Below, in pieces: positions 35,490 through 40,082 of a stretch of 64,000 nucleotides of DNA. A model generated the notes under the pieces. The model had not been told where the DNA came from. It did not search any database and worked only from the letters and a program-made list of their open reading frames with translations. This DNA is from Escherichia coli. Its GTDB lineage: Bacteria; Pseudomonadota; Gammaproteobacteria; Enterobacterales; Enterobacteriaceae. A program made the translations under genes and the position numbers. The stretch is taken from assembly GCF_003334405.1 (NCBI RefSeq), contig NZ_QOWM01000003.1. One strand, 5' to 3'. Within the stretch, counting starts at the first letter, position 1. Every line of letters starts with the position of its first letter.

Positions 35490-36461
35490 TTACTTATCGA
35501 TTTTGCTGATCAGATCCATCATTTTCAGTTTCGGATCGGTGGAAACCTTACGGACTTCCAGCTCAATACCGCGCGCATTCAGTTTCTTGAACGCCTCGAT
35601 ATCTTTTTCATCAACCGAAACCGCGTTATTCACCTGGGTTTTACCCTGACGGAATGCCATACCACCGACGTTAACAGAGGTGATTTTCACGCCGCCTTCA
35701 ACGAGACGCTCTACATCTGTTGGGTTGGTAAATAACAGCATTACGCGTTCGCCAGCATATTTCGGGTTGTTGTAGACGCGAATCATTTTGGCAACATCAA
35801 CTACGTGTGCTGTTACGCCCGGAGGTGCAACCTGGGTGAGCAGTGTCTTACGAACGGTATCCGCAGCCACTTCATCACTAACAACAATAATACGGGAGAC
35901 ATTGGTTTCTTTGGTCCAGCGGGTGGCGACCTGACCGTGAATCAGACGGTCGTCGATACGCGCAAGGCCAATAACCATGTAGTCGTTTGGCCCCATTGGT
36001 TTTGCCGGAGTTGGAGCCGCTTTTGGTGCTGCGGCAGCGGGTGCTGGCGCGGCTTTTTCAACCGGTTTGGCTTTCAGTGCTTTCACGCCTTCACGGCCTG
36101 TTTCTACTGCCAGTGCCACCAGTTCATCAAAGCTTGGGTCATCATCACGGGCCATTAACGTTTCCACGAGCATTGGAATGTTAACGCCTGCAATGACTTC
36201 ATAATGCTCTTTGTCGACGACAATGCGGCTGGCAGCATTGAACGGGCTGCCTCCCCATGTATCAACGAGAAACAGCACGCCTTTAGTGGTGTCGAGTTTT
36301 GCCAACTGAGCGTTGTACTTTTCAATCAGCGTTTCGGCATTTTCACCTGGAACGAAATCGATCCAGCCGACGTTTTCCTGCTCGCCTAACAGCATTTCTG
36401 CCGTTTTAAGCAACTGCTCTGCAGCCCAACCATGTGTGCCTATAACAATAGCAATGGTCAC
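35490..36461 (-). CDS. manX: Mannose PTS EIIAB component
   Basis: Track ORF 323 aa with an Ala/Pro-rich linker (KAAPAPAAAAPKAAPTPAKP) between the IIA and IIB domains. Confidence 0.95.
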   Translation of the reverse strand: MTIAIVIGTHGWAAEQLLKTAEMLLGEQENVGWIDFVPGENAETLIEKYNAQLAKLDTTKGVLFLVDTWGGSPFNAASRIVVDKEHYEVIAGVNIPMLVETLMARDDDPSFDELVALAVETGREGVKALKAKPVEKAAPAPAAAAPKAAPTPAKPMGPNDYMVIGLARIDDRLIHGQVATRWTKETNVSRIIVVSDEVAADTVRKTLLTQVAPPGVTAHVVDVAKMIRVYNNPKYAGERVMLLFTNPTDVERLVEGGVKITSVNVGGMAFRQGKTQVNNAVSVDEKDIEAFKKLNARGIELEVRKVSTDPKLKMMDLISKIDK

Positions 36462-36923
36462 TTGCTACCTCCTTTATTATCGTTAACACCTCAACGTGCC
36501 AGATGTATTTTTGAATCGTCGTCCACAATCGAATCGATTCAGATAAGGGCTACAACCAAAAACCCCTGCGTTTCGCGATTTATTTTAGATATCGAAAAAA
36601 TTATTTTATGTGATGAAGATCCGTAATTTAACTTTCGATTAGCAGAAATTTCGAAAGGTAAAATATCCTTGTCACATTCGTTTGCAAAGGAAGGTAAATC
36701 TTTGCCAAATCAGAGGCGTCTCTGATATGTTTAACTCCCGTTTAACAACCATGGAGTATAGGGCAGTAGCCCGCAGTATGGATCGTCACCGACGTCATTT
36801 CAGCATCAGGCCTTTTAACGCCTGCCTTTCTGGCACTCTATGCCGCACCTTTCGTTTGCATTTTGTCGTTACGCCTGCATTATTTCTGGCGTCGAATAGC
36901 TATTCCTTAAGCAGGAGCTTGTC

Positions 36924-38480
36924 ATGGAATTCTTAATGGACCCCTCAATTTGGGCGGGGCTACTCACGCTTGTTGTTCTCGAAATTGTGCTGGGTATCGA
37001 TAACCTGGTCTTCATCGCCATTCTTGCTGACAAACTGCCGCCAAAACAACGCGATAAAGCGCGTTTGCTGGGGTTATCACTGGCGCTGATTATGCGTCTG
37101 GGGCTGCTGTCGCTGATTTCATGGATGGTCACGCTGACCAAACCGCTATTTACCGTCATGGATTTCTCCTTCTCCGGACGCGACCTGATTATGTTGTTCG
37201 GGGGGATATTCTTGCTGTTCAAAGCAACAACCGAACTGCATGAACGGCTGGAAAACCGCGATCATGATTCCGGCCACGGTAAAGGCTACGCCAGTTTCTG
37301 GGTGGTCGTCACACAGATTGTCATCCTTGACGCCGTCTTCTCGTTGGATGCGGTAATTACTGCAGTAGGGATGGTTAACCATCTGCCGGTGATGATGGCG
37401 GCGGTAGTGATTGCGATGGCGGTTATGTTGCTGGCATCCAAACCGCTGACGCGATTCGTTAACCAGCACCCCACGGTGGTGGTGCTCTGTCTGAGCTTCC
37501 TGTTAATGATTGGTCTGAGTCTGGTGGCAGAAGGTTTCGGTTTCCACATTCCGAAAGGTTACCTGTATGCCGCGATTGGCTTCTCGATCATCATCGAAGT
37601 GTTTAACCAGATTGCGCGTCGCAACTTTATTCGCCACCAGTCGACTTTGCCGCTGCGAGCGCGTACTGCCGATGCCATCCTGCGTTTGATGGGCGGGAAA
37701 CGTCAGGCCAATGTTCAGCACGATGCCGATAACCCGATGCCGATGCCGATCCCGGAAGGTGCATTTGCCGAAGAAGAACGTTACATGATTAACGGCGTAC
37801 TGACGCTGGCGTCGCGTTCTCTGCGCGGGATCATGACGCCGCGCGGTGAAATAAGCTGGGTTGACGCTAATCTCGGGGTCGATGAAATCCGCGAGCAACT
37901 GCTCTCTTCACCGCACAGTCTGTTCCCGGTATGTCGCGGTGAACTGGATGAAATCATCGGTATTGTACGTGCTAAAGAACTGCTGGTGGCGCTGGAAGAG
38001 GGCGTTGATGTGGCGGCGATTGCTTCGGCGTCTCCGGCGATTATCGTCCCGGAAACCCTCGATCCGATCAACCTGTTGGGCGTGCTGCGTCGTGCTCGCG
38101 GGAGCTTTGTTATCGTGACCAACGAGTTTGGTGTGGTACAAGGTCTGGTCACGCCGCTGGATGTGCTGGAAGCCATTGCGGGTGAATTCCCGGACGCTGA
38201 CGAAACGCCGGAAATCATTACTGATGGTGACGGCTGGCTGGTAAAAGGCGGTACAGATTTGCATGCCTTGCAGCAGGCGCTTGATGTTGAGCACCTTGCC
38301 GATGACGATGATATCGCGACGGTCGCGGGCCTCGTGATCTCGGCAAATGGTCACATTCCCCGTGTGGGCGATGTGATTGATGTAGGGCCACTGCATATCA
38401 CCATCATTGAAGCCAATGATTATCGTGTTGATCTGGTTCGCATTGTTAAAGAGCAACCGGCGCACGATGAAGATGAGTAA
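36924..38480 (+). CDS. yoaE: TerC-family membrane protein with C-terminal CBS/CorC domains (YoaE)
   Basis: Track ORF 518 aa. Confidence 0.9.
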
Positions 38481-38483
38481 GCG

Positions 38484-40082
38484 TTAACGTAACGGCATAA
38501 TGGGCGTGATATGTCCATTATGCCGGGCGGGCGGCGGTTGGCTGCCCGCCAGCCATTTGGGAAAATCACGTAGCGGCATCGGCTGTGCGTACAAATACCC
38601 TTGCAAAATATGCACGCCATGACGGCGCAAATACTTCGCCTGTTCTTGCGTTTCCACGCCCTCCGCCACCAGTTCAATATTCAGTCTTTGCCCCAGCGCG
38701 ATGATGATATCGGTCACCGTCGAGTTAACCGCGTCAGAACCTATAGCTGCGGTAAATGACTTATCAATTTTCAGCACGTCAGGACGTAATGTTTCAAGCC
38801 AGGAAAACGAGCTGTTGCCGGTGCCGAAGTCATCAATCGCCAGTTTGACGTTTTTACGATGCAGCTCGCGGGCAATCCGATAATCAACATCCAGTAAGGC
38901 ATCGCGTTCGGTGATTTCGAGGATCAGTTGCTGAATCGGGTGAGCGCTAAACCAGTACTGATTGAGATCTTTTATCAGCACACCACGGCGAAAATGGCTG
39001 GGTGCGACGTTAATGCCAACATGAAACTGACTACTCATCGGGAAAACATGGCGCTGACGAATGGTTTCTGCCATCACATAGCGGGTCAGTGGCACAATTA
39101 AATGATGTTCTTCCGCGATAGGAATAAACACATCCGGTGAAATCCAGCCCTGACGCGGATTGTTCCAGCGCAGCAAAATCTCTACACCAATACATTGCTG
39201 GCTGCGCGCATTAAGCAAAGGCTGACAGAACAATTCGAACTCATGTTGCGCCAGGCCCAGATTGATTTCGCGGGAAAAGCTCATTCGGTAAGCGGTCGCC
39301 AGCCAGGCGATGTAGCCCACCAGTAAACTTAGCAGCACCGCCAGCGGTAATTGTGTTGGAAGATAGTGCCATGCCAGCGCCGTAGCCCCCGGACCATTAA
39401 CGTTAATGGTAAAAGGAAAGCGTTGCGAAGAAACCTGATAGTTTTCATTGTCTTCAGGTTGCGGAAGGGAATCTACCAGCCCATTACCATAGAGCAAATG
39501 CCGTTTGTCCACCGTCAGGCTGGCGCTACTGATTTGCGGCAGTTGTGGCTCAAGCAGCATTGCCGTCAGTAAGTCGATGTTAATCATCTCCATGACCCCA
39601 GCATTGCTACTGCCCGCTGCAGGCGTCCATTGAATCAAAACCGGACTGCCTTTAATCAGGGCACGGTCGATCGTCAGGCGTAAAAGTGGTTGCGGTGCAG
39701 GAAGTTCAGCCAGAATGTCCACGACGGGCACATTGCGATAACCAAAAATGCTGGAGCAATAAAGTGTGCCGTCTTGCACCAGGCCAATGGATCGCACAGT
39801 TTGGAGTTTTGCCGCCTGTTTACGTAATGGCAAATGGGCGACAGAGCAGGGCAGACCAATCAGCGGAAGCAAGACTTCGCTACCTGCCTGTAGGGGAAGC
39901 AGTACTTTATCTAATTCCTCTACAGCGTGATTGGCGAATTGTACTACCCGTTGTTGATTTAAGTTACGCTGTGAAATAAATCGCACGCTCAGGGTCGAAG
40001 CGAGCGTAACGAGTGCGCAAATCGTACAAACAATCATTCGATTACGACGATAGGTTTTAATGATCCGTTGTGCTTTTTGCAT
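38484..40082 (-). CDS. pdeD: c-di-GMP phosphodiesterase PdeD (YoaD), CSS-domain + EAL
   Basis: Track ORF 38484-40112 trimmed to MQKAQRIIKTYRR... (532 aa); EAL-type signature ...LILEITERDAL... seen. Confidence 0.88.
   Translation of the reverse strand: MQKAQRIIKTYRRNRMIVCTICALVTLASTLSVRFISQRNLNQQRVVQFANHAVEELDKVLLPLQAGSEVLLPLIGLPCSVAHLPLRKQAAKLQTVRSIGLVQDGTLYCSSIFGYRNVPVVDILAELPAPQPLLRLTIDRALIKGSPVLIQWTPAAGSSNAGVMEMINIDLLTAMLLEPQLPQISSASLTVDKRHLLYGNGLVDSLPQPEDNENYQVSSQRFPFTINVNGPGATALAWHYLPTQLPLAVLLSLLVGYIAWLATAYRMSFSREINLGLAQHEFELFCQPLLNARSQQCIGVEILLRWNNPRQGWISPDVFIPIAEEHHLIVPLTRYVMAETIRQRHVFPMSSQFHVGINVAPSHFRRGVLIKDLNQYWFSAHPIQQLILEITERDALLDVDYRIARELHRKNVKLAIDDFGTGNSSFSWLETLRPDVLKIDKSFTAAIGSDAVNSTVTDIIIALGQRLNIELVAEGVETQEQAKYLRRHGVHILQGYLYAQPMPLRDFPKWLAGSQPPPARHNGHITPIMPLR

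Follow-up and report, generated by a model that had tools for sequence, protein, structure and literature searches.

Which regulators act in the region between manXYZ and yoaE of Escherichia coli, and how is this region divided between the two genes that are transcribed away from it? In the stretch of DNA analysed here (64,000 nt, hereafter called the window), manX encodes the PTS mannose protein IIAB on the minus strand (35490-36461), with a GTG start at 36461 according to both the ORF list and the RefSeq annotation, and its product passes the corresponding NCBIfam equivalog model with 611.7 bits (cut-off 400). On the plus strand, yoaE (mgpA; 36924-38480) is assigned to the TerC-CNNM/CorC cation transport proteins by the ORF list, RefSeq and domain matches, the domain search revealing a TerC-like N-terminal and a CNNM/CorC C-terminal part of the protein. 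A role of yoaE/mgpA in Mg2+ protection has been described (mBio 2025).

The two genes are divergent and separated by exactly 462 bp (36462-36923). An initial annotation of this DNA had given the gap the same coordinates, which agree with the ORF list, and had pointed to AT-rich tracts, which are real: GC content in the manX half of the spacer (36462-36700) is 0.356 vs 0.50 in the window. Its view of the gap as a long spacer upstream of manXYZ was correct for the coordinates but not for the content, since the gap is partly coding and its yoaE half is a separate, published control system comprising a CpxR site, a PhoP site and the small gene yoaL.

The region is almost invariant within the species. 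Positions 36300-37100 were matched in 5424 of 5426 complete E. coli genomes (with at least 99% identity in 5422 of the 5426), and the homologous stretch in complete E. coli genomes carries the annotation manX / yoaL / yoaE. For comparison beyond E. coli, 80 loci from other Enterobacteriaceae were fetched, of which 78 keep manX and yoaE in divergent orientation with a gap of 437-485 bp. Conservation was scored in 40 non-redundant Enterobacteriaceae sequences with less than 88% mutual identity (the 40 species referred to below), in which the mean identity of the spacer is 0.65.

The locus is a well-studied control region; earlier publications cover the control by CRP and Mlc, the binding of Cra, the sites for PhoP and CpxR, and yoaL. 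Within this framework, we conclude with a probability of about 85% that the 462 bp hold two divergent promoters, which are separated by about 160 bp and have regulator sites of their own. In the following, the evidence is presented from the yoaE end of the region toward manX.

The yoaL leader reading frame

The final 146 bp of the manX-yoaE "spacer" are coding sequence of yoaL, a leader ORF of 52 aa that RefSeq places on the plus strand at 36778-36936 and that overlaps the start of yoaE by 13 nt; what looks like a "long spacer" may contain a small gene that is already annotated. In all 40 species, the yoaL ATG at 36778 is invariant, the frame is kept despite in-frame indels (46-55 aa), and the stop codon TAA lies 13 nt past the A of the yoaE ATG. 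The N-terminus MDRHRR(H/Q/L) of the peptide is conserved as well, but its middle part is essentially free to vary. Because frame and stop are fixed while the middle is variable, selection acts on translation that reaches the yoaL stop and not on most of the peptide.

Two lines of published evidence demonstrate that yoaL is translated. Epitope tagging revealed the protein, at that time as a 69-aa version starting at 36727, and ribosome profiling later shifted the start downstream; replacing the yoaL start by a stop codon strongly lowers expression of a yoaE-lacZ fusion (preprint). The start codon of the 69-aa model, ATG 36727, lies inside the PhoP box described below. Neither this ATG nor the one at 36751 is conserved, in contrast to the invariant ATG at 36778. 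The figure of "13 codons upstream" given in the preprint disagrees with the distance of 17 codons that we count.

A Shine-Dalgarno sequence for yoaE (AGGAG, 36913-36917, plus strand) is located inside yoaL codons and is conserved. Its predicted pairing probability is 0.58 vs 0.79 in shuffled sequences, and it lies below the controls in 32 of the 40 species. A conserved block within yoaL (ACGCCTGC) was considered as an anti-Shine-Dalgarno element masking this site and was rejected, the Shine-Dalgarno sequence being less paired than in shuffles in those 32 species. Since the yoaE Shine-Dalgarno sequence is not masked, we favor termination-reinitiation over unmasking of a structure. A conserved ORF, a stop that overlaps the yoaE start and, from the literature, an effect of its translation on yoaE are what a coupled leader ORF is expected to display. 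We infer from these features that yoaL is the translationally coupled leader ORF of yoaE, with termination-reinitiation as the probable mode.

Simple reinitiation is not the only way in which translation of yoaL could matter. It could instead shield the leader from Rho-dependent termination, or the leader could be a Mg2+-sensitive sensor. The body of yoaL (36802-36909) is pyrimidine-rich (C 0.33, G 0.20, T 0.31), and C exceeds G in all 40 species even though the sequence is free to vary. Without translation of yoaL, Rho would in this case load on the leader and end transcription ahead of yoaE; the bias is a weak hint in favor of shielding, but in E. coli the ratio of C to G (1.55) is not exceptional, 14.5% of segments of the same length being equally skewed. 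The accessible yoaE Shine-Dalgarno sequence, for which no unmasking is needed, is likewise compatible with shielding or sensing. The leader ORFs of mgtA and corA, which control Rho termination there, are a precedent for such a role. Furthermore, the authors of the mBio 2025 paper suggest a Mg2+-linked role of the leader. Against protection from Rho, predictions yielded neither a terminator nor a stable structure, and the invariant stop 13 nt after the yoaE ATG is a prediction of reinitiation that protection from Rho does not need. We therefore regard shielding or sensing as rather unlikely and retain termination-reinitiation as the preferred mode of coupling.

Compared with the known leader ORFs pssL-pssA, mgtL-mgtA and corL-corA, yoaL shares the organization of a short translated upstream ORF that affects the downstream gene, with frame and stop conserved. 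It differs from them in the absence of predicted attenuator or terminator hairpins, in the 13-nt overlap, in the accessible yoaE Shine-Dalgarno sequence and in the positive direction of the effect.

Translation of yoaL itself may start from an unusual arrangement. Upstream of its ATG, on the plus strand at 36752-36772, a Shine-Dalgarno-like (A)GGAG (36753-56) is followed by TATA and by the hairpin GGGC-AGTA-GCCC (36761-72), which ends 5 nt before the ATG. The GGAG is conserved at 0.99, with CAGGAG present in most species, and its distance to the yoaL AUG is 19-21 nt in all 78 sequences. Subtracting the 4-bp core hairpin from this gap leaves 8-9 nt (29/48 variants, in which the core alone folds). 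Although 99.5% of the aligned stem cells pair, the stem hardly varies, a single compensatory change and five wobble changes being all that occurs, and covariation of GGGC with GCCC was therefore not significant (60 of 500 shuffles). From sequence and spacing, GGAG and the GGGC/GCCC hairpin may together form a split ribosome-binding site of yoaL.

Other RNA elements were searched for in the same region. An Rfam scan of 35000-38500 with E-values up to 1 returned no riboswitch or known cis-regulatory RNA, the only hit being a chance match to Alpha_RBS inside manX. The yybP-ykoY (Mn2+) riboswitch, which often precedes TerC-family genes, gave no Rfam match in the yoaE leader within this interval. 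YoaE residues 13-203 (36924-37530) match the NCBIfam "R_switched" models of YkoY and YjbE, which are riboswitch-controlled TerC proteins; despite this domain match, the yoaE leader contains a leader ORF instead of a yybP-ykoY riboswitch. Predicted folding of the manX and yoaL-yoaE leaders was not more stable than that of shuffled sequences (z = 0.17 and 0.67, respectively), and terminator prediction in the yoaL-yoaE leader returned none.

The promoter of yoaL-yoaE and its CpxR and PhoP sites

Upstream of yoaL, the family alignment shows a clear footprint that reads, in the direction of yoaE, TTGCAAA-N5-GTAAA, then TCTTTGCC, N13, and TCTCTGaTA-TGTTTA-N5-cGTTTAA, and then cAGGAGTAtA-GGGC-N3-4-GCCC-N5-ATGGAyCGTCACCGACGTC. 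Within this footprint, the promoter scan found only one good σ70 match on the plus strand (36702-36731), consisting of a -35 TTGCCA (36702-07), an 18-bp spacer and the extended -10 TGaTATGTT (36723-31), of which TG and TATGTT are conserved throughout the family. A transcriptional start of yoaL-yoaE near 36738 is predicted by this consensus promoter scan.

Immediately upstream of the promoter lies a CpxR box (GCAAA-N5-GTAAA, GCAAAggaagGTAAA; 36684-36698, plus strand) with one mismatch to the direct repeat GTAAA-N5-GTAAA. The match has a shuffle P of 0.05, and the box is kept in 38 of the 40 species. In Salmonella Enteritidis, phosphorylated CpxR gives a DNase footprint over GCAAAGAGATGT, to which the box at 36684-98 corresponds in position; the authors report that the site is conserved in E. 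coli, and CpxR contributes to the induction of yoaE in egg white in S. Enteritidis. In E. coli GZ04-0086, an IS1A is inserted at 36688-36696, flanked by a 9-bp target duplication (AGGAAGGTA). This insertion lies within the CpxR box, just upstream of the yoaL-yoaE -35, and moves the divergent promoters to a distance of ~0.8 kb.

A PhoP box (TGTTTA-actcc-CGTTTA, TGTTTAactccCGTTTA; 36728-36744, plus strand) extends over the -10 and the predicted +1 of the same promoter. Compared with the direct repeat (T/G)GTTTA-N5-(T/G)GTTTA it contains a single mismatch (shuffle P = 0.008), and a box with at most one mismatch is present in 29 of the 40 species. In Shigella flexneri, a sequence identical to TGTTTAactccCGTTTA has been listed as a PhoP box, gel-shifted and DNase-footprinted with phosphorylated PhoP. 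The footprint is reported there at -107 to -83, numbers that do not map in a simple way onto the yoaE ATG of E. coli.

What does PhoP do at this promoter? In Shigella, the ratio of phoPQ mutant to wild type for yoaE was 7.14 in the array and 3.18 in qRT-PCR, which indicates that PhoP represses yoaE. The S. Enteritidis CpxR study, in conflict with the original table, describes yoaE in Shigella as "upregulated by PhoP". In Salmonella, an mgpA'-'lacZ fusion is induced by high Mg2+, by a mechanism that the authors call unclear (mBio 2025). A box over the -10 and the predicted +1 is in the position of a repressor site, which agrees with the induction of mgpA'-'lacZ at high Mg2+. Phospho-PhoP therefore likely shuts off the yoaL-yoaE promoter by occlusion at low Mg2+. 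Like PhoP-repressed promoters, in which the box overlaps the core promoter, yoaL-yoaE has a direct-repeat box with one mismatch over -10/+1 and increased expression in a phoPQ mutant; here, the occlusion geometry depends on a predicted start position.

Could PhoP instead activate yoaL-yoaE? The box would then replace a -35 region, TATAGG (36757-62) would be the -10 of a second promoter, and the yoaL mRNA would be nearly leaderless. A distance of 12 bp between box and -10 is the usual geometry at PhoP-activated promoters, and TATAGG is indeed located 12 bp downstream of the PhoP box, within a block around 36752-63 that is highly conserved. This block, however, reads CAGGAG, a Shine-Dalgarno sequence, in most species, and the promoter scan does not call TATAGG. 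In this hexamer, position 6 is always G, and positions 3 and 4 vary without constraint; as the -10 of a PhoP-activated promoter it was rejected on this conservation pattern and the missing T at position 6. The "upregulated by PhoP" wording for yoaE in one paper points toward activation, but the 7.14-fold increase of yoaE in the phoPQ mutant and the induction of mgpA by high and not by low Mg2+ point the other way. We consider activation by PhoP improbable and keep repression through the box over -10 and +1 as the preferred reading.

The CRP site and the predicted Mlc/NagC and Cra sites of manX

On the other side of the region, the published 5′ untranslated region of manX has a length of 115 nt. 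Measured from the GTG at 36461, this length would place the transcriptional start at 36576 on the minus strand. A -10 element TAAAAT (36582-36587, minus strand; -11 to -6) is invariant in the 40 species and separated by 21 bp from TCACA. Close to the gene, the Shine-Dalgarno sequence AGGAGG of manX (36468-36473, minus strand) lies inside a conserved block around the ribosome-binding site (36462-36482, identity 0.91).

The TGTGA-containing element tgtgatgaagatccgtaattt (36609-36629, plus strand), which the initial annotation had suspected to contain a CRP half-site, overlaps a 22-bp CRP site TTATGTGATGAAGATCCGTAAT (36606-36627). Its two halves are unequal: TGTGA (36609-36613) is perfect and promoter-proximal, whereas TCCGT (36620-36624) is weak. 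Read on the manX strand, the perfect half TCACA occupies -37 to -33, the usual place of a -35 region. With the manX start taken from the published 115-nt UTR, the site is centered at -40.5 (36616.5), which is close to the class II position (near -41.5, over the -35).

Sequence matching does not single out this site. Relative to the 22-bp consensus AAATGTGA-N6-TCACATTT, it matches 7 of the 10 positions of the core TGTGA-N6-TCACA. With up to three mismatches, this core occurs 192 times in the whole window vs 232 expected, and its two occurrences in the manX-yoaE spacer are at chance level (P = 0.42). A rough 22-bp matrix, rebuilt from 15 classical sites, gives 36606-36627 a score of 7.05 bits, the highest in the spacer but below 14 of the 15 training sites; 38 positions in the window reach at least 7.05 bits, as do 37.5% of shuffled spacers (P = 0.375). 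The CRP weight-matrix scan by which the initial annotation had wanted its proposal to be judged, with a lack of hits counting against it, thus gives the site the top rank within the spacer, yet with a P of about 0.4 that does not exceed chance, and it cannot decide the question in either direction because the real CRP match itself scores no better than chance. Elsewhere in the window, the CRP-like sequences AAATGTGATATTGCACGCACTA (14.6 bits), TGTGAAATAAATCGCA (one core mismatch) and CTCCGTGATGCTCGTCACAAAT (12.2 bits), listed in this order for 30635-30656, 39970-39985 and 59156-59177, are much stronger than the manX site.

Conservation gives a clear answer. With a mean identity of 0.94 vs 0.65 for the spacer in the 40 species, the 22-mer is the most conserved of its length in the manX-yoaE spacer and belongs to the uppermost 1.1% of segments of this size. 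Across the alignment, from Escherichia through Cedecea and Shimwellia, TGTGATGAAGATCCGTAATTT hardly changes, and this holds for the poor TCCGT half as well. It is the class II position together with this family-wide conservation, and not the sequence match, that identifies the CRP site. Published work agrees: manX is a target of CRP in genomic SELEX, and control of manX by CRP and Mlc, which the initial annotation had called established, is attributed to Plumbridge (1998; Mol Microbiol 27:369) by the papers citing that work. The manX promoter has a known CRP site, of which the TGTGA is the perfect half. That it is a chance half-site without a role, CRP acting on manX from elsewhere or indirectly, is very improbable, since the chance-level consensus and matrix statistics and the TCCGT half far from consensus are outweighed by the highest CRP score in the spacer, the class II distance, the recovery of manX by genomic SELEX and a 22-mer whose weak half and 6-bp spacer are nearly invariant while its neighbors drift. 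A real and conserved CRP site may score at chance in matrix scans, and position and phylogenetic footprinting identify such sites.

The segment between -10 and CRP site (36588-36608) shows a variation of its own: if Escherichia, Salmonella and Citrobacter are set aside, most genera have 20 instead of 21 nt between the -10 and the TGTGA. If the manX start is unchanged in these genera, the CRP site would be centered at -39.5.

For the Mlc and NagC operators, we used the published rule of a quasi-palindrome in which only TT/AA at ±5,6 are invariant and the arms from ±7 to ±11 are AT-rich, A/T at ±11 marking Mlc sites and C/G high-affinity NagC sites. Matches to this rule in the spacer exceed those in dinucleotide shuffles (P 0.005-0.01) and fall into two clusters, so that the scan for Mlc suggested by the initial annotation was informative, unlike that for CRP. 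The predicted proximal operator (36579-36602) occurs in two registers centered at -14/-15 and covers the -10; its arms are AT at 10 of 10 positions with T/T at ±11, as in Mlc-type sites (shuffle P = 0.007), and its offset from the TGTGA is fixed in all 40 species. The predicted distal operator (36644-36667), found by the same rule scan, is centered at -79/-80 with arms that are AT at 8-9 of 10 positions, and its register 36645-36667 has G/C at ±11, the NagC type. A rule-compliant site is present at this offset in 28 of the 40 species, the remaining 12 failing the rule; the central bases vary while the TT-N9-AA frame is kept, and the identity of 0.61 is only average. The two operators enclose the CRP site, and a distance of 65 bp separates their centers.

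This arrangement resembles that of other class II CRP promoters with flanking operators for ROK proteins (NagC/Mlc), such as nagE-nagBACD and ptsG. Common to all of them are a CRP site at about -40 that replaces the -35, one operator over the -10 and a second one upstream with the CRP site in between, and the TT-N9-AA operator rule with AT-rich arms. The operator spacing at nagE-B is about 94 bp, compared with 65 bp at manX, and the manX CRP site differs from this class by its unusual asymmetry, a perfect half being paired with a poor one. The manX promoter reportedly carries CAP at -40.5 and two NagC sites, with Mlc on the promoter-proximal one. The operator positions predicted here, counted from the 115-nt UTR, presumably fit that map. 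The promoter studied by Plumbridge (1998) is the identical locus, for which no difference is expected.

A candidate site for a further regulator is located in the manX leader. A Cra (FruR) box (36528-36543; about +34 to +49) has the core TGAATCGATTCg (36530-36541), a near-perfect palindrome at about +36 to +47 of the manX mRNA. This core differs by one mismatch from the palindromic sequence TGAATCGATTCA, which was used as the Cra consensus for placing the box (shuffle P = 0.002). The conservation of the box is 0.90, and the core is present with at most one mismatch in 35 of the 40 species. In Salmonella, Cra binds PmanX in EMSA experiments and a cra deletion raises manXYZ mRNA levels. The Salmonella work predicts a single Cra box upstream of manX, which may be the one at 36528-36543. 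The coordinates of this box, like those of the Mlc/NagC operators, are those of predicted sites placed by scans of the present analysis.

The pairing sites of the small RNAs SgrS and UhpU were also considered as elements of the spacer and were rejected, both being located inside the manX coding sequence. Downstream of manZ, yobD (33250-33708) is co-transcribed with manXYZ according to 5′RACE data of a 2021 paper. If so, the manX control region would govern yobD, too.

A model of the divergent control region

Based on these observations, we propose the following model. On the manX side, RNA polymerase would start near 36576 from the -10 TAAAAT without a real -35, the place of which would be taken by a CRP dimer at 36606-36627, resulting in class II activation. 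Mlc, and NagC when abundant, would repress manX through the operator over the -10 (36579-36602), and the second operator 65 bp upstream (36644-36667) probably permits repression by looping, with the CRP site inside the loop. Cra would add to the repression of manX from the leader box at 36528-43. On the yoaE side, an extended -10 promoter (36702-31) would be aided by CpxR bound just upstream (36684-98) and is most likely silenced at low Mg2+ by phospho-PhoP, with the PhoP box (36728-44) covering -10 and start. From the resulting transcript, yoaL would be translated first, and ribosomes terminating 10 nt inside yoaE would hand translation over to the yoaE start.

CRP and Mlc control, Cra binding, the PhoP and CpxR footprints and the translation of yoaL with its effect on yoaE-lacZ enter this model from the literature. 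The present analysis contributes, for every site, its position, the statistics and its conservation throughout the family, and the loop, the start site of yoaL-yoaE, occlusion by PhoP and termination-reinitiation are the steps that we propose.

Several features of the yoaE side could have a common explanation. As a tentative joint reading, occlusion by PhoP would account for the induction of mgpA at high Mg2+, in combination with a split ribosome-binding site of yoaL and a reliance of yoaE on continuous translation of the leader, caused by the pyrimidine-rich and otherwise variable yoaL body. If this reading is true, both transcription and translation of a Mg2+-protection transporter would be coupled to the Mg2+ status of the cell. 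A PhoP box over -10/+1 together with a coupled leader ORF would provide a testable model for the control of mgpA by Mg2+.
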